A DNA stretch of 64,000 nt. It comes from Dehalococcoidia bacterium (GTDB lineage: Bacteria > Chloroflexota > Dehalococcoidia > Lucifugimonadales > UBA3495). Shown in pieces: positions 31,551 through 61,018 of the stretch. The first letter of the stretch is position 1, and each line of letters begins with the position of its first letter. The notes beneath the pieces are model-generated. The model saw only the letters and a list, made by a program, of their open reading frames with translations. It was not told the origin of the DNA and did not search any database. A program made the translations under genes and the position numbers. Location: assembly GCA_965262865.1 (NCBI GenBank), contig CBDHFZ010000003.1, positions 27,294-91,293 on the forward strand, written 5' to 3'.

Positions 31551-31820
31551 ATGGAAGATTACGCCCAGCCAATGAGACAAGACCAGATAGATCTTCTTAT
31601 CATGGGAGCAAAAAGTGGCAACATGTGGAACAAAGTTCCAAGCGGTTACAGTTCCCTGTTTAGCGAATTGTCACCGGTTATGCTCAAGATAACCGACGGG
31701 ATTGCTGTGGTTGACATAAGACACCGCAACGGCGAAATATACCAGACCACCAGCAATGGCCCATTGGGATATTTAGTTGATGAGTTGGTCGAGTTGGTTC
31801 GCTCGGTAGCTATCGGCTAG
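31551..31820 (+). CDS. hypothetical protein (89 aa)
   Basis: This is an ATG-initiated ORF in the lower-G+C region. I recognised no motif. Confidence 0.3.
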   Translation: MEDYAQPMRQDQIDLLIMGAKSGNMWNKVPSGYSSLFSELSPVMLKITDGIAVVDIRHRNGEIYQTTSNGPLGYLVDELVELVRSVAIG

Positions 31821-31917
31821 CCCCAAAGTCAGACGGAGTCGCCATGATAGAGCAGTACTCAGAACCGACATCGCCGCGGGCCTTTAGTTTCCTATCGAGG
31901 TTTGCCTACTGGTAGCT

Positions 31918-32241
31918 TTGCGGCACTATGTAAGCAAGGGACTGACCGAGGCCGGTATGCGGCTGGTGTCAGGCGGCACTGACAACCTACTCATCTTGGG
32001 TGACTTAACTCCGCTGGGCGTCACTGGGCGGCAGGCAGAGCAGGTGCTGGAGGGCGTAGGAATTATCGCCAACAAGAACGCCATTCCATGCGCCCCTCGC
32101 CCGCCCTGCGTCCCCAGCGGTCTGCGCCTGGGCACCCCGGCCATTATCAGCCGTGCTACGGGCACCGCTGAAACAACCCGCGTGGGCTCTGAGGTACGCG
32201 TGTTAACCGCAGGGTTCCCGGTGGCTGGGATCGATGATTAA
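31918..32241 (+). pseudogene. glyA: serine hydroxymethyltransferase internal/C-terminal fragment, degenerate
   Basis: ..GMRLVSGGTDNLLILGDLTPLGVTGRQAEQVLEGVGIIANKNAIPCAPRPPCVPSGLRLGTPAIISR.. matches the SHMT pattern LVSGGTDNH..VDL...G.TG..AE..L....I..NKN.IP.D.RSP.VTSG.R.GTPA. The conserved His of TDNH and Asp of DPR are substituted. The N-terminal ~2/3 of the gene is absent. Confidence 0.6.
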
Positions 32242-32265
32242 GATGTCCCACAACGAGAGCTAACG

Positions 32266-34233: not shown

Positions 34234-34515
34234 GCGGCGGGGGATGCCGGGGATGAGACGAAGTGACAGCCGGTTGCCCCTACATCTTCCCGCTACTCTC
34301 GGTTCTCCTTGGGCACACGGCGGCAGCGGTGGGGAGGACAGCAACAGAATTCAACTGCTGGACTGGCAGAGGCCTGGTCGTGATTCCAAGACTTGGCGCA
34401 AGGTCTGTCCCGCCGCTCGGCGGCTGACCCTCGCCGATGGGGTTGGACTCGGGCTCGAATGCGGCTTCAGAACGAACCGTAAGGAGGAGATTCTATATTC
34501 TGTCCAGTTTCACGG

Positions 34516-34745
34516 GCCTACCTGAATGGGGTGAACCTGGACTTCAGCCAGCGAGGCAAGCCCATGGGTAACTCCTTTATCGAGACCCTTAATGGGCGTT
34601 TCAGGCCGGAGTGTCCGAACGAGAACTGGGTTCCTTTCCTGGCAGGATGCCAAGGAGAAGGTGGAATCATGGCGAAATTACTACAACAGCGAAAGACCCC
34701 ACAGTGCCTTGTGAAACCTGTCACATCGGGAGTACCGTGCCGGCG
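34516..34745 (+). pseudogene. IS3-family transposase (OrfB) C-terminal remnant, frameshifted
   Basis: LDFSQRGKPMGNSFIETLNGRFRPECPNENW is in one frame and FLSWQDAKEKVESWRNYYNSERPHSAL* in the next. Together they form the conserved end of IS3 integrase-core proteins. Confidence 0.6.
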
Positions 34746-34941
34746 GAAATAGCTGATAGACCCGCAAGACTCTCACTATAGCTGGTACAGGAAATGGAGC
34801 GAGACCAGTATAAGCTATAAGGACCGAAAGCTGGTCGAATCCGAGATTGTGTCTAGATAGGGGTATTGCTAAACTGACATCTAGCGAACAAACAGTTAGG
34901 GGCGCCACGCTGCGGTTACCCGCGGCAAAGGACGGCTGACC

Positions 34942-36078
34942 ATGTCTGCAGCGATATACGACAGGAATCTTCACCTTCCCAGCTTGTCAATCAAGGGATT
35001 TCGTGGCATCGCCGATCTCACGATTCCTAGATTAGGCCGCGTAACGCTAATTACCGGCATGAACAATACGGGCAAAACGTCGATTCTTGAGGGGGTGCGC
35101 CTCCTCATGGAAGGCGCAACGCCTGAAGTGATACGCGAAATTCTCCAGTTTCGCGAGGAAAATGAACAAGGTATGTCAAATATTGGGCAAAATCCCAGCG
35201 GTGAGAGTTTCCTTGTCTCCGCACTTTTCCATGGATTCCCGCAAGTCTCCGAGAGTTCATTACCGATTATCATTTCATCCTGTGAAAACACTCGGAAACT
35301 GCATATGGAAGTGGGCTGGGTTTGGGAAACATTTGACGACGATGGAAACAGTAGATTAGTTCAGGAGGAACGTGCCTTCGTCGGTGAACACGATACCATT
35401 CCCGCGTTAGTGGTTCACACAGAGAACAGGAGGAGGGTCTATCCTATAGATCGCATAAATAGACTGACCTCCAACCGTCGTAGCTCCGCTCGTAATGATC
35501 CTACCCTGACAGAGTCTATATTTGTCAGTTCCTCTGGCGCAGAACGAACGGAAATGCTGGGACCGTTGTGGGATAACATCTCACTTACCGAAAGAGAACA
35601 GTATGTTGTGGAAGCGTTGCAGATTATAGACCCAAAGATTTCCGCCGTTTCGATGGTAGGTGAGCGTTCTGCTCGCACTTCCAGGACCGCAGTAGTTCGG
35701 TCAGAGAGCTTCCCACGACGGGTACCGCTCCGCTCTTTCGGGGACGGAATGAATCGCCTATTCGGCATAGTCTTATCCTTGGTAAACGTCCATGGTGGGA
35801 TGCTTCTGATTGATGAGTTTGAGAATGGAATGCACTTCTCCGTGCAAGTAGATGCATGGCGCACGATTTTTCGGTTAGCACAAATCCTAAACGTGCAGGT
35901 CTTAGCCACGACTCACAGTTTTGATTGCGTAGCAGGTTTTAGGCAGGCTGCGGTTGAACAAGAAGAGACGGATTGCCTTTTGGTTCGCATCGACAGACTT
36001 GGCGAGAAGATGCGCGTCGTAGAGTACACGGAAGAGGACCTCCAGGTCGCGATTAGTCAGAGAATAGAGGTCCGGTAA
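34942..36078 (+). CDS. ABC/AAA_21-type ATPase (378 aa), AriA/AbiLi-like
   Basis: LSIKGFRGIADLTIP.LGRVTLITGMNNTGKTSILEGV contains the Walker A motif. A long insert follows, then LLIDEFENGMH (Walker B) and ATTHS. The stop overlaps the next start (TAATG at 36076-36080). Confidence 0.85.
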   Translation: MSAAIYDRNLHLPSLSIKGFRGIADLTIPRLGRVTLITGMNNTGKTSILEGVRLLMEGATPEVIREILQFREENEQGMSNIGQNPSGESFLVSALFHGFPQVSESSLPIIISSCENTRKLHMEVGWVWETFDDDGNSRLVQEERAFVGEHDTIPALVVHTENRRRVYPIDRINRLTSNRRSSARNDPTLTESIFVSSSGAERTEMLGPLWDNISLTEREQYVVEALQIIDPKISAVSMVGERSARTSRTAVVRSESFPRRVPLRSFGDGMNRLFGIVLSLVNVHGGMLLIDEFENGMHFSVQVDAWRTIFRLAQILNVQVLATTHSFDCVAGFRQAAVEQEETDCLLVRIDRLGEKMRVVEYTEEDLQVAISQRIEVR

Positions 36079-36767
36079 TGGTAGCATCCGGTGCGAATCC
36101 GTTGCCTACTAACGGTGTCCTCATGGTTGAAGGACAGGATGACAAGCATATGGTCTGGCAGCTTTGTCGTCGAGATAGCTCGTCTTTCTCCGTTTCGAGG
36201 TCTGGTTACGAAATGAGTGTAACTCCCCTAACACAATCGACAGCATTTCTTATTGCGGAACAAGGGAGCCGACCCGATCTGCTGAAAGCCATCCGCCAGC
36301 AGATCGTAAGTTCCAGAACCCAGGCGGTTGGGGTCTTGGTGGACGCCGATGATGACTTGAACAAGTGCTGGGAGGATTTAGCAAGGGAGTTCTTGCGGGC
36401 AGACGTTCAATTGCCTGTTCAACCCGACCTAGTGGGTACGATAATACCCGAACAAGGATTCTTCCCCCGCATTGGTATCTGGTTGATGCCTGACAATAGG
36501 ACCGGGGGAGAACTCGAAAATTTTGTATTGGGGATGATTCCCGATGATGACCCAGAATGGCCCTTGGCGCAGGATTTCATCGAGAAAATCCCATGTGGGG
36601 ACAGGAAATTTGCACCGGAGAAGATCGATAAAGCCAAAGTCTATGCTTGGCTGGCAGCTAGAAAGGAACCTGGGCGAATAGGTGCTGCAATAGGAGCCAA
36701 TGACTTATACGTTGGTAACCCGCTTTGTCGGGACTTCCTTAGTTGGCTGACTAAGCTGTTCGGGTAG
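36078..36767 (+). CDS. TOPRIM-like DUF3226/DUF4435-type partner protein (229 aa), AriB/AbiLii/RloB-like
   Basis: LMVEGQDDKHMV supplies the Toprim Glu and VGVLVDADDD the DxD motif. ..IGIWLMPDNRTGGELENF.. is also present. The gene is translationally coupled to the upstream ATPase. Confidence 0.75.
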   Translation: MVASGANPLPTNGVLMVEGQDDKHMVWQLCRRDSSSFSVSRSGYEMSVTPLTQSTAFLIAEQGSRPDLLKAIRQQIVSSRTQAVGVLVDADDDLNKCWEDLAREFLRADVQLPVQPDLVGTIIPEQGFFPRIGIWLMPDNRTGGELENFVLGMIPDDDPEWPLAQDFIEKIPCGDRKFAPEKIDKAKVYAWLAARKEPGRIGAAIGANDLYVGNPLCRDFLSWLTKLFG

Positions 36768-37138
36768 TATCTGGGCTTAACTTTCATCGTGGATCAATAA
36801 CGCGAGAGGGGGTCGGTGACCGCGAACGATAGTCCGTGAAACGCATATGGAAGCCGCCGAGGGATAAGACTGGAACAGGATCTGCAGGCGAAATTGACTC
36901 TAAGTGAAGAAGGTCATTCCCAATTCGGCCACGACCATTCGATTTCGGCTCTATATGCTCCTGTTAAACGTAGGTGACACCTACGGAACGCACTACAGAC
37001 CCATCCACATCTCGGAGATGGTGCTAGTTGCTGTACACATTGGCCCACCTAACTGGACAAAATCAAGAACCTTTGTGATGAGGTTTACCTTGGCGTTGTA
37101 GTCAGCTATACACCCAGCCCCACACGAAGGATGAATAG

Positions 37139-37169
37139 AAAAGCCTCTGCCGTGTTTGCAGAGGCTTTT
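37139..37169. terminator. bidirectional rho-independent terminator hairpin between convergent genes
   Basis: AAAAGCCTCTGC-cgtgttt-GCAGAGGCTTTT forms a 12-bp perfect stem with a 7-nt loop. A/T runs lie on both sides. It sits between 36078..36767(+) and 37467..38342(-). Confidence 0.6.
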
Positions 37170-37466
37170 CAGTTGTGCCACTACGAGTTCTTTGACTTTC
37201 AATCAACAAAAACAGCACGGTTGTCTTGGGCGGTCGATTTGGATGCAACTGAAGTTGAATAGATACCAAAGTCTGCGGGGGCTACAGAACCTCCGGCTTT
37301 GGTAGACCGATAAATAAGTCTACCGACCGACCCAAGGATTCAAGTCTTCGCAGGTGAACCGGACCTTTATCAGGCATTACTGGTTCCCAGTCTTAATATG
37401 AGCACGTCGGTCATACCCACTCGCGAGCAGGCATGACGTGGCTAGTTTCGGACAATGTCTGCCCGC

Positions 37467-38342
37467 CTATAGGGCCCCCGCCTGTTTCAACTGTGCGGTT
37501 ATGTCGTGGCCGGCGCTCTCCCAATCTGTACTTAGAGCTTGTTCTCTCCCAACCATGCCAATGGGGTCTACGCCTTCCACCTTGACGAACACCCGGGGCA
37601 CTCCTCTTTGATATGCGTAGCCGACCTCCTGGTCGGGCCAGCCTCCCCCGTGAAAGTCCTCGGTAACGAAACCGATGAAGATGTCCATCGTGTTCAATGC
37701 GTTGAGTATTTCGTTCTGCCATATCATGCTGGGAGTTACGTCCTCGTGTGCAAGGAAACAACAGAGTCCTTGGTTCTGCAGTTGTTCTCGTACTGTGGAG
37801 ACCTGGTGCCTGTAAACTGCGCGGTGGCTCAGAAACACCAGTTTCCCTCTCTTGTAGCCGTCTCCCCACACTCGGTTCATGTCCTCTACGGAGAGTATAA
37901 CCGGGGCGTTGTCCGCTTCGTATAGAAACCGTGTGGTGACTTCAAACAGGTCAACATCCTTGACCGCCCAGTGAGTTCTGCCCCGCTCGAAAGACCTGTT
38001 CGGCCCCATTCCCAGAGCTTCAAAAACCCTTTCTTCGTTCATCACGATTTTGGGGTAAATGTTGGGCAGGGTGTATATGATCTCGAATCTCCCGCTGCCT
38101 GACCGTACCTCACTGATCCTGCCGATGGAACCCGCAACGTCACGGCCTTCGTAGGTGAAGAGACATGGGTACTTCATCAGTGCATCAAAGTCGGTGCCGT
38201 CGATGCCGGTGAATTGACGCGTGACAGCCTCGTCTGTGTGCTCGAAAACGCGGCCGCTAAGGAAGCTGACCTCGTACAAGCGGCCCTGATTCTGTTCCCA
38301 TTCGTCCTGACTCTGAGAGGACACCTTCAGTAGATTATACAT
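37467..38342 (-). CDS. TIR-like domain protein with unassigned N-terminal domain (291 aa)
   Basis: The C-terminal ~125 aa read KLVFLSHRAVYRHQVSTVREQLQNQGLCCFLAHEDVTPSMIWQNEILNALNTMDIFIGFVTEDFHGGGWPDQEVGYAYQRGVPRVFV. This fits the bacterial TIR/DUF1863 pattern (F.SH....d...L...G...F....i..g..W...i......d.f....t......S.W...E.G.A). I did not recognise the N-terminal ~165 aa. Confidence 0.75.
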   Translation of the reverse strand: MYNLLKVSSQSQDEWEQNQGRLYEVSFLSGRVFEHTDEAVTRQFTGIDGTDFDALMKYPCLFTYEGRDVAGSIGRISEVRSGSGRFEIIYTLPNIYPKIVMNEERVFEALGMGPNRSFERGRTHWAVKDVDLFEVTTRFLYEADNAPVILSVEDMNRVWGDGYKRGKLVFLSHRAVYRHQVSTVREQLQNQGLCCFLAHEDVTPSMIWQNEILNALNTMDIFIGFVTEDFHGGGWPDQEVGYAYQRGVPRVFVKVEGVDPIGMVGREQALSTDWESAGHDITAQLKQAGAL

Positions 38343-46436: not shown

Positions 46437-48965
46437 ATGTTGGACATAGATACCAGACGACGAATAGACACCGCCCGAGACATCCTGGTTGGCAAGGTGC
46501 CGGACCCCAAGAGCCAGGTGGAGCAGATTACTATCGCTCTGATTTACAAGTTCATGGATGACCTGGACGCTGAGAGTGAAGAATTAGGCGGAGAGCGAAA
46601 TTTCTTCTCAGGCGACTTTGCAAGGTACGGCTGGGCTAAGCTGATGCATCCGAGCCTCGGCGGGTACGAGACGCTGAGCCTCTACGCCGAGGCAATAACC
46701 AGGATGCCGGAGAATCCGGGCATTCCCCTGTTGTTCAGGGATATATTCAACAATGCTTATTTGCCATATCGAGACCCTGAGACTCTACGGGCGTTCCTAA
46801 AGGTCATTGACGAGTTCACCTACGATCACTCGGAGCGATTGGGCGACGCCTTCGAGTATTTGCTCTCGGTCCTTGGCGCCCAGGGCGATGCCGGGCAGTT
46901 CCGCACTCCACGCCACATCATCGACTTCATCGTGAGCGTCGTGGACCCGAAGAAGAACGACATCGTTCTGGACCCGGCCTGTGGCACCGCCGGCTTCCTT
47001 ATATCGGCCTACAAGCACATTCTGGCGGCCAACGCCGATGGAAACGGGCAAAGCACGTTGACGCCTGACGACCGGGGCCGGTTAGTCAACAACTTCAAGG
47101 GCTACGATATTTCGCCGGACATGGTGCGCCTCTCCCTAGTGAATATGTACCTGCACGGGTTCCGTGAGCCTCACATCTACGAATACGACACTCTCACCAG
47201 TGAGGAGCGGTGGAACGAATACGCCGACGTTGTCCTGGCCAACCCGCCTTTCATGTCGCCCCGTGGCGGCATCCGGCCCCACAACCGCTTTTCCGTCAAG
47301 TCCACTCGGAGCGAGGTTCTGTTCGTGGACTACATGGCGGAGCACCTGAGTCCCGAAGGACGCGCCGGAATAATCGTCCCGGAGGGAATCATCTTCCAAA
47401 GCCAGACAGCGTACAGGCAGCTTCGGAAGATGCTGGTGGAAGACTATCTGGTGGCTGTAATATCCCTCCCCGCCGGGGTGTTTAACCCCTACTCAGGCGT
47501 TAAGACTTCAGTCCTCTTCCTGGACCGGGCGCTGGCAAAGCGAACGGACAGTATTGCCTTCTTCAGACTGGAGAACGATGGCTTTGATTTGGGTGCCCAA
47601 CGCCGTCGCATAGACAAGAACGACTTGCCCCACGCACAGGCCGAGCTTGGCGAATACCTCGACCGCCTGCGGCGGGGCGAGAGCGTGGAGGATTTTCGTT
47701 CCACGTTGAGCATAGTGGCTGAGAAAAAAAAGGTCGGCGAAGGCGGAGAGTACAACCTTAGTGGAGAAAGGTACAGAGAGAATAAAGCAGGGGATTACAA
47801 ATATCCCGTAGCCAAGATAGGTGAAATTTGCACTATCAATCCTCGCAAGAATGAATTAGTCGATCGTAGCCCAGACACACTCGTCTCCTTCGTTCCTATG
47901 GTTGACCTCAACGAAAACCGAATGCTATTTCAACCAATGCAGGAGAAACTGCTGGCCGAAGTCTTAGGCAGCTACACCTATTTCGCGGACGGCGATGTGC
48001 TTCTTGCAAGAGTTACGCCATGTTTTGAGAATGGCAAGGCAGGTATCGCTCAGGGACTTCTAAACGGTATCGGCTTCGGGTCTAGTGAATTCATCGTTCT
48101 GAGATGCGGAGATGGCATTTTGCCAGAATGGATGTATTTTTGCGTCACGCATCCGTTGTTTCGCAATTGGGCTGTTCACCAGATGACGGGAACGGGGGGA
48201 CTCCAACGTGTACCGCGTTCATCCGTAGCAGGCTTTCAGGTCCCTCTTCCGCCGCTGGAGGTCCAACGGGAAATTGTGGCCGAGATAGCAGGCTATCAGA
48301 AGGTGATCGAAGGGGCGCGGGCAGTGGTGGAGAACTACCGGCCTCATATAGTGGTTGACCCGGAATGGCCGTTGGTGGCGTTGAGAGATGTTTGCGAAAT
48401 CAACCCTGAAACCATCAACCCGGCTTTGGCCTATCCAGACCAGACCATCTTTTACATTGATATTTCTTCAGTGGAAAACGAAACAGGGCGATTTTTGGGG
48501 TACAGCGAAGTGGCCTCAACTGACGCGCCGAGTAGGGCTCGACGCGGGATTCAAAGCGGTGATGTTTTACTTTCGACTGTACGCCCTAACTTGAAAGCAT
48601 TTACTCTTCTCGACGAAGTGGAGGACCGTGCAATAGCTTCGACAGGGTTCGCTGTGCTTAGAGTTCGTGCGCCTTCTGTTGAGCCTGCATTTGTGCTGAA
48701 TTCAGTGAGTTCTGAACAAGCGGTCAACCAAATGGTAAGCATGATGGGAAAGGGTGCATACCCAAGCATCAATCAGTCGGATGTTGCGGCCATAAAGATC
48801 GCCCTCCCGCCATTGGATGTCCAACAGAAAATCGTTACCGAGATTGACGGTGAGCGATCCCTTGTCCAAGCAAACCGGGAGCTAATCGAGCGGTTTGAGA
48901 AGAAGATTCAGGCTGCTATTGCGCAAGTGTGGAGGAAGGATGCGTCCGCTCTGGCGGATGCGTAG
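46437..48965 (+). CDS. fused Type I methyltransferase-specificity subunit (HsdM-HsdS fusion, 842 aa)
   Basis: The HsdM_N-like N-terminus is followed by FRTPRHIIDFIV, DPACGTAGFL and the VLANPPF catalytic motif. Two target-recognition domains follow (..IGEICTINPRKNEL..VTPCFENGKAG.. and ..LRDVCEINPETINP..STVRPNLKAF..) with conserved PPL.VQ..IV.EI spacers. Confidence 0.9.
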   Translation: MLDIDTRRRIDTARDILVGKVPDPKSQVEQITIALIYKFMDDLDAESEELGGERNFFSGDFARYGWAKLMHPSLGGYETLSLYAEAITRMPENPGIPLLFRDIFNNAYLPYRDPETLRAFLKVIDEFTYDHSERLGDAFEYLLSVLGAQGDAGQFRTPRHIIDFIVSVVDPKKNDIVLDPACGTAGFLISAYKHILAANADGNGQSTLTPDDRGRLVNNFKGYDISPDMVRLSLVNMYLHGFREPHIYEYDTLTSEERWNEYADVVLANPPFMSPRGGIRPHNRFSVKSTRSEVLFVDYMAEHLSPEGRAGIIVPEGIIFQSQTAYRQLRKMLVEDYLVAVISLPAGVFNPYSGVKTSVLFLDRALAKRTDSIAFFRLENDGFDLGAQRRRIDKNDLPHAQAELGEYLDRLRRGESVEDFRSTLSIVAEKKKVGEGGEYNLSGERYRENKAGDYKYPVAKIGEICTINPRKNELVDRSPDTLVSFVPMVDLNENRMLFQPMQEKLLAEVLGSYTYFADGDVLLARVTPCFENGKAGIAQGLLNGIGFGSSEFIVLRCGDGILPEWMYFCVTHPLFRNWAVHQMTGTGGLQRVPRSSVAGFQVPLPPLEVQREIVAEIAGYQKVIEGARAVVENYRPHIVVDPEWPLVALRDVCEINPETINPALAYPDQTIFYIDISSVENETGRFLGYSEVASTDAPSRARRGIQSGDVLLSTVRPNLKAFTLLDEVEDRAIASTGFAVLRVRAPSVEPAFVLNSVSSEQAVNQMVSMMGKGAYPSINQSDVAAIKIALPPLDVQQKIVTEIDGERSLVQANRELIERFEKKIQAAIAQVWRKDASALADA

Positions 48966-48968
48966 GCT

Positions 48969-49688
48969 ATGGATGAAGCTCTCGATTTGGCCGACTATCT
49001 CCCGGCTTCCTTCAGGACCTCTAGCGATCAGGAATACGTTTCTTTCCTGTGGGAGGCATTTGAGGAAAACTACGCTAGAGCCAAATACCAGTTTGCCCTT
49101 CTTGCCTACCATATGCTCATGATGAGCTTCGTTTACTTCAACCTTTGGCAAATTAAGCAGATTCAGCCCGATGATTTCGCGAAGGGTGTGATTGGCTTTG
49201 CTAGAGAGGAAAGCCAATTGCTCCAGGCGACTTCACCATTCACGTTCAGTGTAGCTAATGAGAGTTCTGCCATGCGACTTCTTAAACTCATCGGGTGTGA
49301 CAACGGCAAGATTGGTCAATATTTGAAGCTTGTCGGAGACCGGAACAACGCTGCTCATACGAACGGTCACATCTCTTTCACGACACAACGTCAGGTTGAC
49401 GAGCAAATCCGCCAAGTGCTCCGGTCGGTTGAGGAAATTCAAACCCTCTCCCATCCCATTATCCAAAGCTGCTATGAAAAGTTTCTACTCGACAGTTACG
49501 ACCCTGACGAACGGGAGTACCAGGATGCAGAAGACCAAATTCGTGAGGTGCTGATTCACGGCAACTATATGTCCCGGAAAGACATCGAGCTGTGCGCCAA
49601 CTTCGACGTTTCGGCTTTGGAGAATGAAAACAAGGGTGCAATCGAAGCCCTGCACAATACCCTATGCGACGCCTACGGACCCGCGTAG
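48969..49688 (+). CDS. HEPN-like (DUF4145/Abi-type) protein embedded in the R-M operon (239 aa)
   Basis: The gene starts 4 nt after the hsdMS stop. The Rx4H motif GDRNNAAH lies at 49341-49358 in an all-helical context. This gene type is commonly found inside Type I R-M loci. Confidence 0.65.
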   Translation: MDEALDLADYLPASFRTSSDQEYVSFLWEAFEENYARAKYQFALLAYHMLMMSFVYFNLWQIKQIQPDDFAKGVIGFAREESQLLQATSPFTFSVANESSAMRLLKLIGCDNGKIGQYLKLVGDRNNAAHTNGHISFTTQRQVDEQIRQVLRSVEEIQTLSHPIIQSCYEKFLLDSYDPDEREYQDAEDQIREVLIHGNYMSRKDIELCANFDVSALENENKGAIEALHNTLCDAYGPA

Positions 49689-49870: not shown

Positions 49871-50176
49871 ATGACCACTAACAACTCAGGCAAGCTGAAT
49901 ATGGGCGGAGTGAGCGCTATCATAGACATCACTAGCAAGCCGCCCAGCGAGCGAACACCTCAGCAGTCTACTTACCTAGCCGCCTGCCTGACGGCGCTTG
50001 CCCACCAGCCTAGTCGCTGGTACTCGTATCAAGATTGGGGGCCGAGCGGTCCTGTACAGTTCTTGGCGCAGAGGGGGATAGAGTTCACCCCCGTCCTTGG
50101 CAATCGTACTGGAGGCCGGTCCTGGTATAACGGATGCGAGTGCAACGAAAAACACTGGCGGGAAATACAACCATGA
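49871..50176 (+). CDS. hypothetical protein (101 aa)
   Basis: The ATG is preceded by AAGGAGG at ideal spacing. The stop overlaps the next start (ATGA 50173-50176). I recognised no motif. Confidence 0.5.
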   Translation: MTTNNSGKLNMGGVSAIIDITSKPPSERTPQQSTYLAACLTALAHQPSRWYSYQDWGPSGPVQFLAQRGIEFTPVLGNRTGGRSWYNGCECNEKHWREIQP

Positions 50177-50364
50177 CCACGTATAACCCAGCCACACCAG
50201 CGCAAGGGAATACAGCGGATGAGTTGAATGGCACCATATCCAACAAGCAACCGGAACCCGTCCGAGAAATACTTGGTCGAAACGAGAGTCAGTGTATGAG
50301 CGCAATAAGCCCACTTTCCAGCGCAGATAGTGGCGATAGCAATAATTCAATGGAATCTCTTTGA
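50173..50364 (+). CDS. hypothetical small protein (63 aa)
   Basis: This is an internal ATG of track ORF 50134..50364, translationally coupled to the upstream ORF. The product is polar and low-complexity. Confidence 0.35.
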   Translation: MTTYNPATPAQGNTADELNGTISNKQPEPVREILGRNESQCMSAISPLSSADSGDSNNSMESL

Positions 50365-50415
50365 CTATATTATTAGCCAATATTAATTCTCAGAAAGGCT
50401 GGCAGTGCCGGTTGG

Positions 50416-52188
50416 GTGAGCCGCTTGATTATGGACAAAATTAGCTGGCTTCATATCTCTGATTTCCATTTCAGAGCCAAAGGGGATAATTTCAGCCAGG
50501 AGGTGTCATGCGACGCGCTGGTGCGTGACATTCCTTCGCGTCTGTCGGATGAATATCCCTTGCAGTTCATTGTAGCCACTGGCGACATCGCCTTCTCTGG
50601 ACTGTCCAGCGAATATGAGCTTGCTTCAGCCTTTTTTGCTTCGCTTTTAAACAACCTCGGGCTTGACGCTGAGCGTCTTTGTATCGTGGCAGGCAATCAC
50701 GATGTTGACCGCAATAGCCAAGTCTACATGTATGAAGGAGTTCGGTCGCGCCTGACCAACCAAAGGGATATCGATGAGTTTCTGGGTATAGAAGCCGAAC
50801 GCATGCAGTTAATGGAAAGGCAATTGGCGTTTCGTGAGTTCCGAGACCGTTTACTCGTCGACGGTCAAATAAGCGAAACGAACGAGGGATTAGCCAGGAT
50901 TCGCCATTTCGACCTCAGCGGCTTCCGAGTTTGTGTAATGGAACTAAATTCTGCCTGGTTGTCAGGAGATAAGGACCACCCTGGCAGCCTCTTGGTCGGT
51001 GAGAGGCAAATAATCGGTGCTCTGAGGTTGGCTGAGAGTCATACTCCCCACCTAACTGTTGCTTTGACCCACCACCCGACGGACTGGCTAGCAGAGTTCG
51101 ACCGAACAGTTTTCACCAACCGGTTAGTTCCGCAAGTGGACGTTTTCCACAGCGGCCATCTTCATACGCACCAAGCATTCATCATGCTAGTGCCAGGTTC
51201 GCAATGCCTTCACTCAACTGCCGGTTCAAGCCATGAGACTCGCCACTACAAGAACTCGTACAACTTGTTGGAGTACGACATTGGCAACGCGACTTGCAAA
51301 ATTCGCCAGTTCGAATATAAAACCGACTCTGGGGAGTTTCAAGAATTACAAGGGATCGAGTGCGGGCTACCTCCCAGAGGAGAGATACAAGCTACTCAGG
51401 CAGAGCTCGCAGGTGTGCTCCGAGAAAGTATACCGGAGGCCGAACCCTATGCAGGATACATGGCATCTCTCCTAACGGGAGGGCTGGAGGAAGTGCCAAT
51501 ATTGTTGGATGCTGAAACCACGACTTTCGGATCCAAGGGATTCCCGGCTGAGTACCAAATTCCCGAGGTCTGGCATTTCTTGCGCATATCAAATTTCCTC
51601 AAGGTTTTTGATACAGTTCCCTTGCATGAGATGATCTCGAACCAAGCGGAAGCAATTGCCGGCTTCGCGACCTTTCTGAGTAAGACCGCATCGACCGACG
51701 CCGATTTCGCGAATCTGCTTTCTAACCGTGAGCTCCAGGCGCAGAAGCTATCAGGGGTAGGTTTATTCGAGACTTCTACCTTTCAGGAACAGTATCTTGA
51801 CGAATTGGCGAATGGTGGAGAGTTGGCAGAACTAATCGAGACGGCAAGTCGGTATAGTAATTCTTCGGACAAGTTCGTACGGGTTGCCGCTAGGAGGTAC
51901 CTCGCATGGGCCCTTTTGCAACAGGATGATTTAGAGATGAGGAGAGAAGGATCAAGCCTCGCTTCTCAAAATCTTGATGAAGATTGGGCCGAATGTAGAG
52001 ACTACCTCTTGGCATCAGCCGCCGCCGAATCTTCGGGGGACTACAGCCTTTCGGAGAGTATCGCGATGAGAGCTCTGCAGATTTGGCCCGATGATCCTGA
52101 CCTTCGGACGCATTGCCGTTCCTTTGCTATGCAACGAGGAAGTCAAGCCCTCAGGCAACGTTTACACGAAACGGGAGGGACCGTTTAA
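50416..52188 (+). CDS. calcineurin-like metallophosphoesterase with ~270-aa helical (TPR-like) C-terminal extension (590 aa)
   Basis: The full MPE motif series is present in order: HISDFH, GDIAFSG, GNHD, HHP, GHLH. An alternative start is ATG 50431. The stop overlaps the next gene's start. Confidence 0.85.
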   Translation: MSRLIMDKISWLHISDFHFRAKGDNFSQEVSCDALVRDIPSRLSDEYPLQFIVATGDIAFSGLSSEYELASAFFASLLNNLGLDAERLCIVAGNHDVDRNSQVYMYEGVRSRLTNQRDIDEFLGIEAERMQLMERQLAFREFRDRLLVDGQISETNEGLARIRHFDLSGFRVCVMELNSAWLSGDKDHPGSLLVGERQIIGALRLAESHTPHLTVALTHHPTDWLAEFDRTVFTNRLVPQVDVFHSGHLHTHQAFIMLVPGSQCLHSTAGSSHETRHYKNSYNLLEYDIGNATCKIRQFEYKTDSGEFQELQGIECGLPPRGEIQATQAELAGVLRESIPEAEPYAGYMASLLTGGLEEVPILLDAETTTFGSKGFPAEYQIPEVWHFLRISNFLKVFDTVPLHEMISNQAEAIAGFATFLSKTASTDADFANLLSNRELQAQKLSGVGLFETSTFQEQYLDELANGGELAELIETASRYSNSSDKFVRVAARRYLAWALLQQDDLEMRREGSSLASQNLDEDWAECRDYLLASAAAESSGDYSLSESIAMRALQIWPDDPDLRTHCRSFAMQRGSQALRQRLHETGGTV

Positions 52189-54428
52189 TGGCGAACGAAT
52201 CCAGCAGCTTCGAGGTAGGAATCGAATTTAGCAGTGTGCTCTCAGCTATCTCGAAGCAAATTTACGACACTCCTTATGCGTTTCTTCGAGAAAACCTCCA
52301 AAACGCTATCGATGCTTCTCGAATACAAGCCAGACGGAAAACGATTTCTCCAAGCGACCCTTCCTTAAGAATAGACATCAAGGTCCAAGGAGATTCTGTC
52401 CGTATCCGTGACCGCGGCATTGGAATGTCACCAGATGACTTGCGACACCTATACTGGACGATCGGCGCCAGCGGGAAGCGTAACGACGAAGCGAGGGCTG
52501 CCGGATGCGTGGGAATGTTCGGAATAGGAGGATTCGCGAACCTCGGTGTTTGCAACAGGCTTATCGTCACATCACAGGCCGAACAAGTCACAGGGCAGCG
52601 AACCGAACTTAGTCGTGCCGATATTGATAGTGCCGTCGGCTTACCACAAGTTGCCCAAGAGCCATCTGATGAGGCCTCGCCTCGAGGAACGATAGTTGAG
52701 GGCATCCTTGAGGCGCCAACCCCGGAGGATGAGCTTCGCCAGTATATTCAAGAGATAGTAAGGTATTGTCGTGAACCAATCTACTTCAACGGAAACTTGA
52801 TATCAAGTGAGCAGCCTGGCTCACATATCCAGACCCATACGCCGATTGATTCCAACAAATGGTCGCACGCTGGGATCGAGATTACGGGCATGGTTTACAG
52901 AGTTGACGACCAGACGCTAGGTGCCAAACTAGAAGGGTTGGAACGGCAAGGTGAAGCTTCGGAGCTTTTTGCTATGCTTCGGTTTGAGGGAAGCGGCATT
53001 GATGTCCGCAAGCAAGGATTCAGGCTGTGTGGGACCTCTGTTCCTACCAAAATCGGCGTGTCTGGGTTTATCGATTGTAACCTGCTTTCACCTACCGCCG
53101 GGAGAGATTCTCTGAACCCTGAATCGAGCACACTTGTGGCGAAGATTGTTGGTGCAATGGAACGCGTTGCAGTCTTGACTGTGTTGGAGTCGAGCGACCT
53201 CATCGAACAGCACACCAGAATCTTCCGATATGTGAGGGAAAATGCGCTCATTGACAAATTGGGCAAAGTGAAAGTTCAAGCTGCTGGAGGCTCCTGGCAT
53301 TCCTTGGATGAACTTAAGGTTAAAGCCAACAATGGATCACAGATATTTTTCGGGACTGCGGGAAACGCAGCACTTACGAACGTTTTGCATAGCCGCGGGC
53401 ATATCGTGGTGTTCCTCCCGAACGACAGCCATAAGGCAGCGGCAATCCGAGATTACTTGTCCTCGGTGGGGGCGACAGACCTCAGGGGCCAAGTCGAGTG
53501 TTCAGAGCAATATGAGGACTTGAACCGGTTCGAGAAGGCCTTCCTCGCCGAACTATCGGAGACAATCTCCAGCATCTACCAAGTGAGTAGAGTGTCCCTT
53601 ACGCCTGGCAGTTTGACAGAGGACATTCCAATTTACGTGTCTAATGCGTCATCCGGGGCAGCCACACCACTTCGGATATATGTTGACGTGCGTCACGAAG
53701 ATGTGGCTAAACTAGCAAAATTTGGCATCACCGCCCTGTTCCGATCGATGGTCTCGGCTTTCTGCCGTGAGTATCTTGGCCAGACCCTGAGGTCTCGGAG
53801 CCCTAAGTTCTTCGGAAGCGGAGCAGTGAACCTGGACTGGCTTGCAGGACACCGGTCAGAGATTTGGGTTCTCTTGACCGATGATATTGCTGTCGTTGAC
53901 CGGGCTGTACGGCGACAAGTTATAACATCACAAGACATTCGTGTTGTGTCAGCTTCACCAGGAGTAGCAGGTGTCCAGCCGCAGTCCAACGACGAAGAAG
54001 AGCCTAAGCTTGTCAAAATTGTAGGGGCTGGACATGACTTTAGAGATCTAGACGGATACTATCTTAGAATTCCCAACTCAGCTTCCGCTGCATACGGAGA
54101 CTTGATAGTTGCAAGTGATGACCACGGTGCAGTTTGGATGGGTAACAAGATCACACTGTTGGCATCTGACGGTATCAGCACAGCATTTCAATTCGAGGTC
54201 AAGCTAGACCAGTTGCTATTGAATGCTGATGGGAACTCGCTTTCCCAGGGTGCAGTCGAAATTGAAGGTTCAATCCAGGAGTTGTTTGGAGGTCTATATT
54301 TTCCACTCCCAACCGAGCTTGAACGACATCTAGTGCCGGTCAGAGACCAAGAGGTCCGCATCGAGGTCTTGTTTGACTGGCTCGATTTTGTCGGTTCCCG
54401 TAGCTGGACAGCTCGCGACCGGGAATGA
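52188..54428 (+). CDS. GHKL (Hsp90/MORC/sacsin-like) ATPase with large unassigned C-terminal region (746 aa)
   Basis: ATG 52188 overlaps the TAA of the upstream gene (TAATG). Bergerat-fold motifs are LRENLQNAIDA (N box), IRDRGIGMS (G1) and GMFGIGGFANLG (G2). I did not recognise the remaining ~550 aa. Confidence 0.85.
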   Translation: MANESSSFEVGIEFSSVLSAISKQIYDTPYAFLRENLQNAIDASRIQARRKTISPSDPSLRIDIKVQGDSVRIRDRGIGMSPDDLRHLYWTIGASGKRNDEARAAGCVGMFGIGGFANLGVCNRLIVTSQAEQVTGQRTELSRADIDSAVGLPQVAQEPSDEASPRGTIVEGILEAPTPEDELRQYIQEIVRYCREPIYFNGNLISSEQPGSHIQTHTPIDSNKWSHAGIEITGMVYRVDDQTLGAKLEGLERQGEASELFAMLRFEGSGIDVRKQGFRLCGTSVPTKIGVSGFIDCNLLSPTAGRDSLNPESSTLVAKIVGAMERVAVLTVLESSDLIEQHTRIFRYVRENALIDKLGKVKVQAAGGSWHSLDELKVKANNGSQIFFGTAGNAALTNVLHSRGHIVVFLPNDSHKAAAIRDYLSSVGATDLRGQVECSEQYEDLNRFEKAFLAELSETISSIYQVSRVSLTPGSLTEDIPIYVSNASSGAATPLRIYVDVRHEDVAKLAKFGITALFRSMVSAFCREYLGQTLRSRSPKFFGSGAVNLDWLAGHRSEIWVLLTDDIAVVDRAVRRQVITSQDIRVVSASPGVAGVQPQSNDEEEPKLVKIVGAGHDFRDLDGYYLRIPNSASAAYGDLIVASDDHGAVWMGNKITLLASDGISTAFQFEVKLDQLLLNADGNSLSQGAVEIEGSIQELFGGLYFPLPTELERHLVPVRDQEVRIEVLFDWLDFVGSRSWTARDRE

Positions 54429-54556
54429 TTGTGGGAGGCCAGAGCGACTGCTTATATTGGGACCTCCCACCGAAAAGTTCGCAATTCGGTACGCGCAGGC
54501 CCGCGTAGCGGGTCGGAGAGGTTGAATACTCCCGACGAATGCCATGAGGCAACCTG

Positions 54557-54997
54557 ATGACTGCACAGTCAGAGCTAAATCACGATTCCTCCGCCGTTCA
54601 GAAACACCTGGAGATAATGCAGGGCGTGATAAACCGGATGGCGGAGAACAGCCGCTCCTGCAAGGTCTGGAGCGTCCCCCTCGTAGCGGCTATCCTAGTG
54701 CTGGTGGCGCGGACGGGAAAGGCGGACCATGCGCTGATAGCATTAGCTCCGACGGTCCTTTTCTATTTCTTGGATGCCTACTACCTTGCCTTGGAGCGGG
54801 ATTTCCGGCATTCTTATGGTAGCTTCGTCCGCCGACTCCATGAAGGGCAGGTCGTCACCTCAGACCTGTTCGCCGTAATCCCTGCGGGTTCGATATGGCG
54901 GGGAACCCTTTGGGCGATGTTCCTGTCTTTCTCGGTACCGCCTTTCTACACTGTGGTCGTCGCCACGGTGCTGCTGGCCTGGCTGCTGATCCTGTAG
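54557..54997 (+). CDS. small multi-pass membrane protein (146 aa)
   Basis: An amphipathic N-terminus is followed by hydrophobic spans VWSVPLVAAILVLVA, ALIALAPTVLFYFLDAYYLAL and WAMFLSFSVPPFYTVVVATVLLAWLLIL. It is on the same strand as the MPE/GHKL genes. Confidence 0.6.
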   Translation: MTAQSELNHDSSAVQKHLEIMQGVINRMAENSRSCKVWSVPLVAAILVLVARTGKADHALIALAPTVLFYFLDAYYLALERDFRHSYGSFVRRLHEGQVVTSDLFAVIPAGSIWRGTLWAMFLSFSVPPFYTVVVATVLLAWLLIL

Positions 54998-55065
54998 TTG
55001 GGGCAGGAAGCAGAGGGGTTGTTGAGCGGAATCTTGGTCGCCCAGAGACGACAGGCCGGTAGTCA

Positions 55066-55626
55066 GTGCCTACATTGTCTGAACTCCCGAAGCGACTCGA
55101 GGAAAGACAACGGATGAGGGCAATAGCGAAGCCAATAGCACTGAATGCTTTAGCCGGTTTGATTGCCGGTCTATCAGTGTCTGCGTTTTTATGGACTGCG
55201 GACTATCTCAGTGACCGGTCGGCTAATCGCCAGGACGTGAAACACATCTGTGAATTGTTGGCCGAAGGAAGAGCCCACGTAATGGAAGCCAGGGGTACGT
55301 CTTTCGAAGGCATGGGTGCAACGGCGTCAGCAGACAGTATTCGTGCTAGGCAGTACAACAGAATGATAAAGGAACTTGACGTAGCCTTCGAAATGTGGAC
55401 GGTAAATCTGTCCCACACGCAAAGGAAGGAAATATACGATGCCTTGGACTGGTATCACGTTCGGCCAGATGCACAATTTGCTATTAAGAGAGATGGGAAA
55501 GTGGTTTTCCAAGAGGTTCCCGACGGCAAATGGCCCACGGCAGAAATGTCAATGGAAGCGGCTAGCGAGAAGTTCGACAAACTTCAATCCATCGAATGGC
55601 TGAAGCTAAAGTCAGATTGCAGTTGA
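55066..55626 (+). CDS. membrane-anchored protein (186 aa), single N-terminal TM helix
   Basis: IAKPIALNALAGLIAGLSVSAFLW is a TM segment followed by a soluble helical domain. The GTG start is from the ORF track. It is the last gene before the IS debris. Confidence 0.55.
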   Translation: MPTLSELPKRLEERQRMRAIAKPIALNALAGLIAGLSVSAFLWTADYLSDRSANRQDVKHICELLAEGRAHVMEARGTSFEGMGATASADSIRARQYNRMIKELDVAFEMWTVNLSHTQRKEIYDALDWYHVRPDAQFAIKRDGKVVFQEVPDGKWPTAEMSMEAASEKFDKLQSIEWLKLKSDCS

Positions 55627-59088: not shown

Positions 59089-59724
59089 TTGGCTCCGGAC
59101 ACTCACCTGTACCGCGCGCGCTGGGAAATGCCAGGTGCGCAACTCGAAACGCCTCAAGAGTTAGGGCCTCCACCGGAGGAAAAGGCAACTCAAGCCAATC
59201 GGATGAGCGCTCCGGGAATCGTGATGTTTTATGCCTGCGATGATATCGACACGGCCTTGTTGGAGGTGGCTCAGGAGCCTGGGGCATTCGCAGTCGGTTG
59301 CTGGAAGATTCTCAGGCCGGCCATCGTGCTGGATCTGACGGATATTCCGGCTATCCCTGGCTTATTCGAGCGCGATCCAGATGTTGGCGAGGACGTTCCT
59401 CGTCGTGCCCTGACGTTCCTACACCATGTCGCTGACCAAATGTCTCGGCCCATTACGCGCGATGACAGAATCCATGTTGAATACGTGCCCACGCAGGTGG
59501 TAACGGAATTCCTACGGGCTCGAGTGAAGTGGCAAGGGAAGCCCATCGACGGAGTGAAATACGCCAGCGCAGCGCGCCTTGGACGCGCATCCTATGTATT
59601 GTTTGCGAACCGAGACCATGTGGTCATCAACAATGCCGACAGTGAGTCGGGAGAATCGCCTTGGCTCGAATTGGTGGATGTCTGGCACCGTTGGGTAGGT
59701 TTATCCGTCCAGCCTCCTGCCTAG
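59089..59724 (+). CDS. RES-domain protein (toxin-like), probably 5'-truncated by the IS21 copy-2 end
   Basis: LYRAR.., ..NRMSAPGIVMFYACDDIDTALLEV.. and ..GVKYASAA.. fit the Arg/Glu/Ser signature order of RES domains. The reading frame opens immediately at the IS end (in-frame TGA at 59074-59076, inside the IS). Confidence 0.6.
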   Translation: MAPDTHLYRARWEMPGAQLETPQELGPPPEEKATQANRMSAPGIVMFYACDDIDTALLEVAQEPGAFAVGCWKILRPAIVLDLTDIPAIPGLFERDPDVGEDVPRRALTFLHHVADQMSRPITRDDRIHVEYVPTQVVTEFLRARVKWQGKPIDGVKYASAARLGRASYVLFANRDHVVINNADSESGESPWLELVDVWHRWVGLSVQPPA

Positions 59725-59998
59725 AGCACGCAACTGCCGTCTTGGATTTCCGCATACTGCAGACGCAGCGGTCTCCGTCGTTGTTTGCCATCAACCACTT
59801 TTACCGGCGTTCAGCCCCAGGCCCTGCCGGCACCGAAGGAAGAGTCGGCAGGGGAGGACCCAGCAGCCACAACTACAATAGAAGCACAAGAATCCAGGCT
59901 CCAACGACGATGGTGGCCTTTCGGCAGGGGATGAGACACCCTGGGCCCAGCACTGCTCGCAGGTCATAGGACCCCCGGCCAAAGGCGAACTCCGCTGC

Positions 59999-61018
59999 TT
60001 GGACACAATTCCCTTTCCCGATGCCACGTGGAACTGTGTCCAGACGGCACCGACCCCCTGGAACGGAGAATATACTTCCGTGATGACCCCGACACTAGGA
60101 GCGACCATGGGCGACAACGCCACCCATGACCCCAAAGCCCTGGAAGTAGCCCAGGCCGTCCACCAGCAGGAAAGGGCGATTGCAACCATACTCTTCGGCT
60201 CCAGAGCCAAGGGGACCCAGGACGAGTTGCTTTCAGACATAGACATCTTGGTGATAACCAGCCGCTCAGCCGCGAACGCAGACTGGAGCTCCAACTCGAC
60301 ATGGGCCAGAAACCTGGCGGCAAGGATCTACGGCCGCCCGGTGGACGTCCAGCTCGTGCCCACCACGCTGGAAGAAGTCGGCGACACCCGCCACCTGGCC
60401 GACTCCACCGAGGGCGTCGCCCTCCGGGACGGGATTATCGCCGGCGGTAACCCGGAGCAGTTCCGGAGCGTCTACAAGGAGCAGGACCCGCCGCCGCCAC
60501 AGTACAATTTTGGGAACTACAACTGGTTCATGCAGAATGCCAAGGTTGCCCTGGAGACGGCCGTCACCTGCCACACCGGCACCCCGCCAAAGGCCGGGTA
60601 CAACCCGATGACAGCAATTGCAAAAAGGGTAACGGAGAACCCGGACATAACCCCTGAGACTCGCTACGACCTCGTGCGGCACTCGGCCGCCTCGGCGATC
60701 AGGCACGCTCTTGACGCCGTCTTCTGGGCTACAGGCAAGGCGTCCCCCAACCGGATCTCCCTTGAGCAGAAAGCCACCCTGATCGCCGAGGCCCTGCCCC
60801 AAGAATCGCTGACAACCAGGCTGCCACTCGCAACCTACCAAGAAACCGGTACGCCCCTGGCCCTATCCCGGGAAGATTTCATCGAGGCGGCCATTGCAGA
60901 CACCGGGATATACCGCGAGGCCGCCATGCGAGCCCGAAGACGGACCGCCAGCCAGTCGAAGAAGGCACTCAGAAAATGGGAGCAGGCCAGGTCGACCAAG
61001 ACAGCCGAATCAGGATGA
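59999..61018 (+). CDS. Pol-beta-type nucleotidyltransferase domain protein with helical C-terminal domain (339 aa; start uncertain)
   Basis: ILFGSRAKGTQDELLSDIDILVITS is the GS-x(n)-DxD minimal NTase motif. The C-terminal ~170 aa are helical. I saw no canonical Rx4-6H. Confidence 0.6.
   Translation: MDTIPFPDATWNCVQTAPTPWNGEYTSVMTPTLGATMGDNATHDPKALEVAQAVHQQERAIATILFGSRAKGTQDELLSDIDILVITSRSAANADWSSNSTWARNLAARIYGRPVDVQLVPTTLEEVGDTRHLADSTEGVALRDGIIAGGNPEQFRSVYKEQDPPPPQYNFGNYNWFMQNAKVALETAVTCHTGTPPKAGYNPMTAIAKRVTENPDITPETRYDLVRHSAASAIRHALDAVFWATGKASPNRISLEQKATLIAEALPQESLTTRLPLATYQETGTPLALSREDFIEAAIADTGIYREAAMRARRRTASQSKKALRKWEQARSTKTAESG

Follow-up and report, generated by a model that had tools for sequence, protein, structure and literature searches.

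A coupled calcineurin-like phosphoesterase and Hsp90-type ATPase form a mobile two-gene cassette, a candidate bacterial conflict system

The window analysed here, a stretch of 64,000 nucleotides (nt) from a Dehalococcoidia bacterium (assembly GCA_965262865.1, contig CBDHFZ010000003.1, positions 27,294-91,293), carries six closely spaced open reading frames (ORFs), designated A to F, at positions 49871-55626. Two of these are the subject of this study. ORF C (50431-52188 from an ATG, 585 amino acids (aa), or 50416-52188 from a GTG, 590 aa; + strand) encodes a calcineurin-like phosphoesterase with a helical C-terminal extension, and ORF D (52188-54428, + strand, 746 aa) encodes a predicted Hsp90-type GHKL ATPase. 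The stop codon of C and the start codon of D overlap within the TAATG read at 52186-52190 (+ strand), and a Shine-Dalgarno-like GGGAGGG run lies inside the 3′ end of C, just upstream of this junction. Previously, a sequence-only reading of this stretch had proposed that all six ORFs constitute an undescribed defence system, in which small membrane proteins could be the effectors. All six ORFs are indeed present on the + strand with the same coordinates. However, the present study reveals that the conserved unit is, near-certainly, made of two genes, C and D, which are translationally coupled and mobile as a cassette.

The catalytic domain of C occupies aa ~1-315 (50431-51375, + strand), as delimited by Pfam, the motifs and an AlphaFold2 (AF2) model. 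The complete calcineurin-like motif series recognized earlier (HISDFH, GDIAFSG, GNHD, HHP and GHLH) is present, and Pfam matches the protein to Metallophos with an E-value of 3.8e-6. In 24 sequences with identities as low as 25%, these five motifs do not vary (D11, H13, D52, N89, H90 (at least 90% conserved), H214, H215, H243 and H245). The family comprises 140 homologues of uniform length, ~585 to 600 aa. In the AF2 model (predicted local distance difference test score, pLDDT, 89), a phosphoesterase core of ~315 aa is followed by an all-helical C-terminal domain, aa ~323-585 (51397-52185, + strand), which is TPR-like from about aa 450. The earlier assignment of a helical, TPR-like region of ~270 aa thus agrees with both the model and the profile: the modelled region is almost entirely helical, and the C family profile matches consensus TPR proteins (1e-11), Fis1 and the TPR region of OGT there. 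With the whole model as a query, Foldseek returned Bacillus subtilis YydB in the YydD-YydB model (PDB 9a6c) as the best match (E-value 6e-19, 535 columns), followed by other phosphodiesterases and nucleotidases, namely Lmo2642, UshA and the cyclic-nucleotide phosphodiesterase Rv0805.

By sequence, the catalytic domain of C falls into the DS-8/Metis/PDC-S60 phosphoesterase effector clade. C matches the NCBIfam model DS8_antiphage (NF053861) at 9e-43 over model positions 1-285 of 994, and the PADLOC model PDC-S60 at 4e-37 over positions 4-327 of 1027; both matches are restricted to the N-terminal ~300 aa of C. Besides, C matches the PADLOC effector model PDLC00736, labelled 'Endonuclease' (5e-25, positions 3-286 of 561), and the NCBIfam model DS9_1 (NF053862; 2e-19, positions 194-397 of 486, covering just its phosphoesterase part). 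Relatives of this domain adjoin GASH genes on Aeromonas plasmids. C was nevertheless rejected as a DS-8 member: only the N-terminal third of that profile is covered, the score is 146 bits against an equivalog cut-off of 790, and neither a NACHT nor a P-loop match was found in C with Pfam, PADLOC or NCBIfam. Likewise, it was rejected as a MisA protein, as it matches just the phosphoesterase part of the DS-9 model and starts directly at phosphoesterase motif I, without a PUA-like domain. With its catalytic residues intact, C is the predicted effector of the pair.

The N-terminal domain of D (aa ~1-215, 52188-52832, + strand), defined by invariant motifs and profile matches, is an Hsp90-type ATP-binding domain. 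The Bergerat-fold motifs noted before (ENLQNAIDA, DRGIGMS and GMFGIGGF) are all there, with a Pfam HATPase_c_3 match of 3.6e-9. Across 15 sequences, the invariant residues are E35, N39 and D42 in RENxQNAxDA, D75-x-G-x-G, the TIGASGKR lid signature and G109-x-F-G-I-G-G-F. They correspond to the series expected of an Hsp90-type N-domain, namely E-x3-N-x2-D, D-x-G-x-G, the lid signature TIAxSGT and G-x-F-G-x-G-F. The family is large, with more than 700 full-length homologues of ~745 to 760 aa, and a profile search of 1.84 billion cluster representatives recovered 181 D clusters at an E-value of 1e-30 or below. An invariant PTAGRD motif (R306), present as PTAGRE in a distant Pseudomonas aeruginosa homologue, appears on inspection to resemble the 'SRE' of the Hsp90 catalytic loop, and the tail motif LVP...E[IL]R[IL]E.C[DE]WxD....[KR]xW is conserved across phyla.

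The remainder of D (52833-54428, + strand) comprises, according to AF2 and Foldseek, a middle-domain-like region, confident as far as aa ~470, and a C-terminal region whose model is poor. The mean pLDDT of the AF2 model is 65, with a good model for aa 30-470 (80 to 90 for aa 120-470). The top Foldseek matches are full-length Hsc82, TRAP1, GRP94 and HtpG (E-value ~1e-19, 550 to 690 aligned columns, template modelling score (TM) 0.38 to 0.50), and the TRAP1 fragment of N and middle domains gave a target-normalized score (TMt) of 0.59. Searched against the PDB, the D family profile matches only the Hsp90 N-domain (7e-20), and the 60 best PDB matches by sequence and the 50 best by Foldseek all belong to the Hsp90 family. 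Comparison of the D profile with one HtpG by hhalign gave a probability of 98% over the N-domain only; therefore, the homology of the middle domain comes from Foldseek alone. The full-length structural matches argue that D is a divergent paralogue of Hsp90, related to it at least in the N domain and, probably, the middle domain. Thus, of the ~550 aa that had seemed unassignable, at least a part looks like an Hsp90 middle domain, and the C-terminal ~270 aa stay poorly modelled.

Three other identities for D were considered and rejected. Homologues of D are annotated by the Joint Genome Institute (JGI) as 'molecular chaperone HtpG', yet D scores far under the HtpG equivalog cut-offs (PRK05218, 42.5 bits against 371; PRK14083, 76.8 against 455) and occurs sporadically across phyla in defence or mobile contexts. 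This agrees with the earlier expectation that D is not an ordinary HtpG or MutL orthologue. A MORC/MutL-type GHKL protein is equally not indicated, since all top sequence and structure matches belong to the Hsp90 family and the HATPase_c_3 match is generic; of the initial 'Hsp90/MORC-like' label, the Hsp90 half therefore holds and the MORC half does not. Defence GHKL models give weak N-terminal matches only (MzaB, 12.7 bits against 850; BbrUII, 22.5 against 550), and for MzaB no other mza genes are present. By its motifs, D is predicted to be an ATP-driven sensor or switch.

The pairing of C and D is widespread. We scanned one genome per species, 185,579 in all, with an alignment of 15 D homologues and found 70 D loci from more than 15 phyla, a lower bound as the scan required exact peptide words. 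The seven window proteins (A to F and a HEPN-like ORF upstream) were then compared with these loci by tblastn. A C homologue lies directly upstream of D in ~64 of the 70, so the proposed linkage of the phosphoesterase and GHKL genes is conserved, whereas A, B, E, F and the HEPN-like ORF were found at none. The pair occurs in Chloroflexota, Actinomycetota, Acidobacteriota, Planctomycetota, Nitrospirota, Gemmatimonadota, Poribacteria, Spirochaetia, Alpha-, Beta- and Gammaproteobacteria, Myxococcota and others. Of the 58 loci whose C gene is complete, 49 have overlapping stop and start codons (by 4 nt in 22 and by 8 nt in another 22), and in 8 more the gap is 30 nt or less, giving 57 with a tight junction. 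The sole exception, L064, has an ORF of ~270 aa between C and D, and a copy of that ORF also follows D.

Furthermore, the identities of C and D homologues to the window proteins co-vary (Spearman 0.69, n = 46), and clustering of all flanking ORFs revealed no third family that recurs beside the pair. In four close metagenomic relatives (98, 88, 84 and 79% identity) A, B, E and F were again not found, and in those of 98% and 88% identity a transposase lies directly upstream of the pair. The upstream position of C, the tight junctions, the lack of a third family and the transposase-flanked relatives together establish C-D as a two-gene mobile cassette. In phage genomes we found only weak matches to the GHKL N-domain (e.g., rIIA-like proteins) and no copy of C-D. 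The C gene is split or interrupted in some relatives, with a frameshift-like split in L072 (4544-6329) and insertions in L034 and L064, which points to probable occasional decay of the cassette.

The surroundings of the pair were sampled by taking the nearest ORF of at least 200 aa on each side, which yielded 105 proteins. Their commonest Pfam families are N6_N4_Mtase, ResIII, DDE transposases, BrxL, resolvase and SWI2_SNF2, with HSDR_N, Methylase_S, phage integrase, Fic, SIR2_2 and HNH also common; the commonest PADLOC matches are mad2, type II and III methyltransferases, BrxL and PDC-S15. A restriction-modification (R-M), BREX, Fic, SNF2 or recombinase/transposase/relaxase family lies within 8 kb at 33 or more of 68 loci, and at 27 or more of the 43 loci of at least 15 kb; both counts are lower bounds because only recurrent neighbour families were labelled (by Pfam). 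Type I R-M operons stand directly upstream of or around the pair at four loci (L009, L018, L047 and L057), as in the window. The suspected association with defence islands is therefore strong, if qualitative, with R-M, BREX, SIR2, HNH, Fic and mobile elements as the commonest neighbours.

Two of the loci are described here individually. In the metagenome contig L071, a pair of 84% identity lies amid an MmeI-type R-M system, a PIN protein, a SMODS cyclase and a TIR-TPR protein. The same contig also holds a cytosine methylase beside a second, unrelated HATPase_c_3 protein. A distant homologous pair is carried by the P. aeruginosa IncP megaplasmid pPUV-9 (L081, NZ_MT732187.1, 420627-424396), where the gene of the metallophosphoesterase WP_193826294 (483 aa) overlaps that of the ATP-binding protein WP_193826295 (772 aa). 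Profile comparison identifies them as distant homologues of C (E-value 2e-14) and D (E-value 2e-42 over 567 columns). An ABC-three-component/DUF3732 (Lamassu-type) system lies ~3 kb away on the opposite strand, with three ORFs between, and is a separate operon. The pPUV-9 pair is also present on at least two sister plasmids.

The most distant D branch, with 22 to 24% identity over the full length, is represented by L066 (6420-10145) and L067 (138-3137). Here, the upstream partner has canonical TPR repeats and a HEYLSH motif in an unfamiliar N-terminal domain, and no phosphoesterase domain was detected in it. A scan of metagenome contigs for this distant GHKL branch found none. Judged from the sequences of these two loci only, a TPR adaptor together with an Hsp90-like ATPase may constitute a constant platform on which the effector domain is swappable. 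Swapping of effectors on a fixed platform is a pattern typical of conflict systems.

ORF A (49871-50176, + strand, 101 aa) has a ribosome-binding site, AAGGAGG, 6 nt 5′ of its ATG at 49871 and overlaps ORF B (50173-50364, + strand, 63 aa) in the ATGA at 50173-50176. These two elements and the TAATG between C and D had been pointed out before and were read at just these places. The intergenic gaps of the cluster had been given as 52, 129 and 69 nt, and each is actually one less (51, 128 and 68 nt); with the ATG at 50431 as the start of C, as in a 100%-identical database protein (P0121), the gap between B and C becomes 66 nt. A is a singleton in a collection of 15 billion proteins. B has no detectable relatives and may not be a gene; with the starts given here, neither B nor F has been recorded as a called gene. 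For C, D and E, the full-length homologues number from hundreds to thousands and show that these three are real genes.

ORF E (54557-54997, + strand, 146 aa) has three hydrophobic segments and belongs to a family with more than 1200 homologues; of the 120 that were listed, nearly all have a length of ~146 aa. It had been suspected to be a SLATT-like protein, and this candidate was rejected: no SLATT match was obtained in Pfam at an E-value of 0.1 or below, where just two sub-threshold, unrelated matches appeared. Instead, E matches PADLOC PDC-M50A over its full length (4.4e-29); a search for literature on PDC-M50 found nothing. PDC-M50 is a separate candidate system, in which such a membrane protein is paired with a ThsB-like TIR protein and which as a rule lies in or beside type I R-M operons. 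In five of six contexts examined, E homologues adjoin small ThsB-like TIR proteins, without C or D, and these TIR neighbours match PDC-M50B (1.4e-13). Complete type I R-M operons surround two of the six contexts, and an HsdM remnant precedes four. The window contains no TIR partner of E. ORF F (55066-55626, + strand, 186 aa) has an N-terminal hydrophobic anchor, is unrelated to the TIR partners of E homologues and has no PDC-M50B, TIR or other family match in Pfam, PADLOC or NCBIfam; no relatives of F were found in metagenome contigs or, by tblastn, in plasmids. Here, E could be a leftover or could act together with another partner. A, B, E and F are thus co-residents of an R-M-linked island and not parts of the pair, and E or F as effectors of C-D were rejected on their absence from the 70 loci and the close relatives.

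Directly 3′ of the D stop codon, a hairpin (54433-54468, + strand; minimum free energy -21.4 kcal/mol, z-score -1.9, without a U-tract) is a weak hint that the C-D unit may end there. A promoter scan found 8 sites where 4.3 ± 2.1 were expected, and a terminator scan was at chance level. The G+C content is 0.51 to 0.55 across 44-56 kb and 0.62 to 0.70 in most of the remaining window. Upstream of the cluster lies a type I R-M operon, in which HsdR precedes an HsdM-HsdS fusion, followed by a weakly HEPN-like ORF; downstream are two transposase genes and, further, the genes of a RES-domain protein and of a nucleotidyltransferase. The description of the locus as a lower-G+C island bracketed by insertion sequences, past an R-M/HEPN operon, is hence sound for the G+C drop, the upstream R-M genes and the downstream transposases, and not for the HEPN label.

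Several further features of the window are recorded here. The HsdM-HsdS fusion (46437-48965, + strand, 842 aa) has N6_Mtase at aa 133-450 and Methylase_S at aa 643-801. Four nt past its gene, the 239-aa ORF at 48969-49688 (+ strand) has a sub-threshold RiboL-PSP HEPN match (E-value 0.042) and is a singleton at 90% clustering, and its 'HEPN' label is not established. Beyond the transposases, at 59089-61018 (+ strand), a protein of 211 aa with a RES domain (Pfam 2e-13) and one of 339 aa with a nucleotidyltransferase domain look like parts of toxin-antitoxin-type modules. A second low-G+C stretch (0.50 to 0.56) lies upstream at 31000-38000 and may be another acquired island.

Neither PADLOC v2.0.0 nor NCBIfam release 20 (June 2026, containing DS-8, DS-9 and MzaB models) has a model for D or for the pair, and the searchable literature yielded no name or paper for a defence combination of a GHKL/Hsp90/HtpG protein with a metallophosphoesterase. 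The pair thus matches no system named in these sources, as had been proposed. DS-8 is a validated single-protein system, a metallophosphatase with NACHT, which cannot defend without its catalytic residues (DeWeirdt et al., Science 2026, PMC13092281). DS-8 and PDC-S60 share with C the same metallophosphoesterase (SMPDL3A-like) clade and the coupling to an NTPase. However, they are single proteins of ~1000 aa with the phosphoesterase fused to a NACHT/STAND NTPase, whereas C carries a TPR-like domain and the NTPase is a separate Hsp90-type GHKL protein.

DS-9 is Metis, in which MisA is a nicotinamide adenine dinucleotide (NAD+) diphosphatase that converts NAD+ to nicotinamide mononucleotide (NMN) and adenosine monophosphate (AMP), is activated by N6-methyldeoxyadenosine monophosphate (m6dAMP) and requires its catalytic residues for defence (Osterman et al., bioRxiv 10.1101/2025.11.05.686725). 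Metis type I resembles the window pair in being a two-gene system with a homologous phosphoesterase effector domain, and MisA provides a biochemical precedent. In contrast to C, MisA has an N-terminal PUA-like m6dAMP sensor, its partner MisB is a HAD phosphatase, and the system has no ATPase; Pfam gave no HAD match in the six ORFs, and no HAD-like family recurs in the 70 loci. In the GTPase-centric GASH/GAP1 systems, a calcineurin-type phosphodiesterase is the commonest effector (Kaur et al., eLife 2020, PMC7159879). They likewise combine an NTP-dependent regulator with a swappable nucleotide-directed effector, but their regulators are GTPases, MoxR-vWA or STAND proteins, and Hsp90/GHKL is not mentioned there (Kaur et al., PMC7159879).

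MzaB of Mza, paraMORC/MORC and BbrUII/HgiDII share the Bergerat fold and HATPase_c_3 with D, which is, however, closest to Hsp90 by sequence and fold. With respect to Lamassu/ABC-three-component systems, no ABC or SMC ATPase is present in the cluster or recurrent beside the pair. B. subtilis YydB, the best structural match to the whole of C, is a phosphoesterase modelled in complex with YydD; this partner, which we take to be an ABC/SMC-like ATPase, is not a GHKL/Hsp90 protein.

An analogy outside bacteria is offered by eukaryotic PP5, a TPR-containing phosphatase of the metallophosphoesterase fold, whose TPR domain imposes autoinhibition and which the C-terminal tail of Hsp90 activates. Both arrangements have an Hsp90-family ATPase and a partner with a TPR or TPR-like domain and a binuclear-metal phosphoesterase fold. 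They differ in that PP5 is a PPP protein phosphatase with an N-terminal TPR, whereas C is of phosphodiesterase type with a C-terminal TPR-like domain, and in that D ends in CDWxD..[KR]xW and not in MEEVD. The resemblance, an analogy without homology of the catalytic domains, suggests TPR-mediated docking and control of C. Taken as an undescribed system, then, the locus is new in its pair and not in its phosphoesterase domain. What is already known is the effector clade, in DS-8, Metis and GASH systems; what is new here is a DS-8/MisA-type effector under a new class of regulator, an apparent Hsp90 paralogue, linked via a TPR-like domain.

From the linkage, context and homology described above, a defence or conflict function of C-D is probable. 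With somewhat more reserve, we favour C-D as a self-contained, horizontally mobile conflict system, in all likelihood one that counters phages in the manner of abortive infection. The translational coupling of the genes suggests that the two proteins form a complex. How the pair might operate can be sketched tentatively. D would be an ATP-dependent sensor or clamp that holds C inactive via the TPR-like domain of C; upon meeting an infection cue, e.g., a phage protein bound as a 'client', D would release or activate the phosphoesterase. Active C would then destroy an essential nucleotide-type metabolite, whereby phage replication would stop and the infection would be aborted. A possible substrate is NAD+, which C would split into NMN and AMP as the best precedent, MisA, does; another nucleotide or a cyclic nucleotide could take its place. 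In this scheme the gating of C by the D switch through the TPR-like domain is the specific mechanism, which we consider rather less likely than not.

A broader proposal, again drawn from analogy and somewhat doubtful in our estimate, is that a bacterial Hsp90 paralogue has been recruited as an immune switch, which docks TPR-bearing effectors, gates them and treats a phage protein as its client. On that proposal, the effector would usually be a phosphodiesterase of DS-8/MisA type, with an unrelated N-terminal domain taking its place in the distant branches. Several observations weigh against a conflict system of the favoured kind. The association with defence islands is only qualitative, and some loci have metabolic or unlabelled neighbours (e.g., L072). 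The C-terminal ~270 aa of D are modelled at a pLDDT below 60. No substrate is known for DS-8, the relative to which the effector is closest. Lastly, the 'Endonuclease' label that PADLOC attaches to PDLC00736 leaves a nucleic-acid target for C possible.

This last point leads to the alternative that survives best, though we judge it unlikely: a DNA-targeting machine in which C is an Mre11/SbcD-like nuclease and D an ATP-gated DNA clamp (MutL/MORC/Topo VI-B-like), the two cutting foreign DNA in a manner functionally like Rad50-Mre11 or paraMORC-nuclease modules. The 5e-25 match to the 'Endonuclease' model, a weak SbcD match (0.0025), Mre11 structures among the Foldseek matches and the R-M systems beside the pair would all fit such a machine. 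However, among solved structures Rv0805 fits the catalytic domain of C best (TMt 0.66 to 0.69), and Mre11 fits it less well (TMt 0.37 to 0.50). In addition, no Mre11 capping or DNA-binding domain was detected in C, D is of Hsp90 type and not of MutL/MORC type, and MisA, which among the validated relatives with a known activity is the closest, cuts NAD+ and not DNA.

A lower probability still attaches to an addiction module, in which D would restrain a toxic C and loss of the pair would be lethal, so that the pair would stabilize mobile elements without a dedicated anti-phage role. The pair does lie beside transposases, integrases and relaxases and on plasmids, and the tight coupling of a potentially toxic enzyme to a partner is a toxin-antitoxin-like layout. 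Yet a 746-aa ATPase with invariant catalytic residues would be a costly antitoxin, and the R-M, BREX and Lamassu neighbours, beyond the mobile elements, are typical of defence genes. Besides, addiction and defence functions can coexist.

It is improbable that the pair is a housekeeping or stress chaperone pair without a conflict role, that is, an HtpG paralogue with a TPR co-chaperone or phosphatase in the manner of Hsp90-PP5, even though the Hsp90 fold of D, the TPR-like domain of C on a metallophosphoesterase fold and the HtpG annotation at JGI would suit it. Only 70 of the 185,579 species genomes (a lower bound) have the locus, in more than 15 phyla and without conserved synteny. The low-G+C island and the R-M, BREX and mobile-element neighbours, the scores of D far below the HtpG cut-offs and the position of C in a defence-effector clade and not among PPP phosphatases also speak against it. 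Lastly, a six-gene operon A to F, whose pair would signal to E and/or F as membrane effectors, is very improbable and largely refuted by the comparative data: the six ORFs do share strand and proximity, and E is a genuine membrane protein, conserved in a family that is a candidate for defence, but A, B, E and F were not found at any of the 70 loci or in the relatives of 79 to 98% identity, E occurs elsewhere with ThsB-like TIR proteins in type I R-M operons without C or D, A, B and F have no detectable homologues, and a hairpin follows the D stop.

If the favoured explanation, a C-D conflict system, is true, Hsp90-family ATPases would be added to the proteins that regulate immune effectors in bacteria, which so far include STAND, ABC/SMC, GTPase, MoxR and MORC-type proteins. 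The DS-8/Metis phosphoesterase effector would gain a third regulatory architecture, which would help to define the substrates of the clade. The pPUV-9 pair (WP_193826294/WP_193826295) provides a homologous pair in P. aeruginosa, a cultivable and manipulable host. In eukaryotes, the partnership of Hsp90 with an enzyme that bears TPRs is characteristic of proteostasis and of the maturation of nucleotide-binding leucine-rich repeat (NLR) immune receptors, and bacterial HtpG is not known to have a TPR co-chaperone. Should the broader proposal of a recruited Hsp90 switch be true, it would give the first chaperone-fold NTPase shown to be a bacterial immune sensor and a prokaryotic precedent for the coupling of Hsp90 with TPR co-chaperones. 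A widespread bacterial Hsp90-TPR module would, furthermore, make the origin of this eukaryotic coupling testable.

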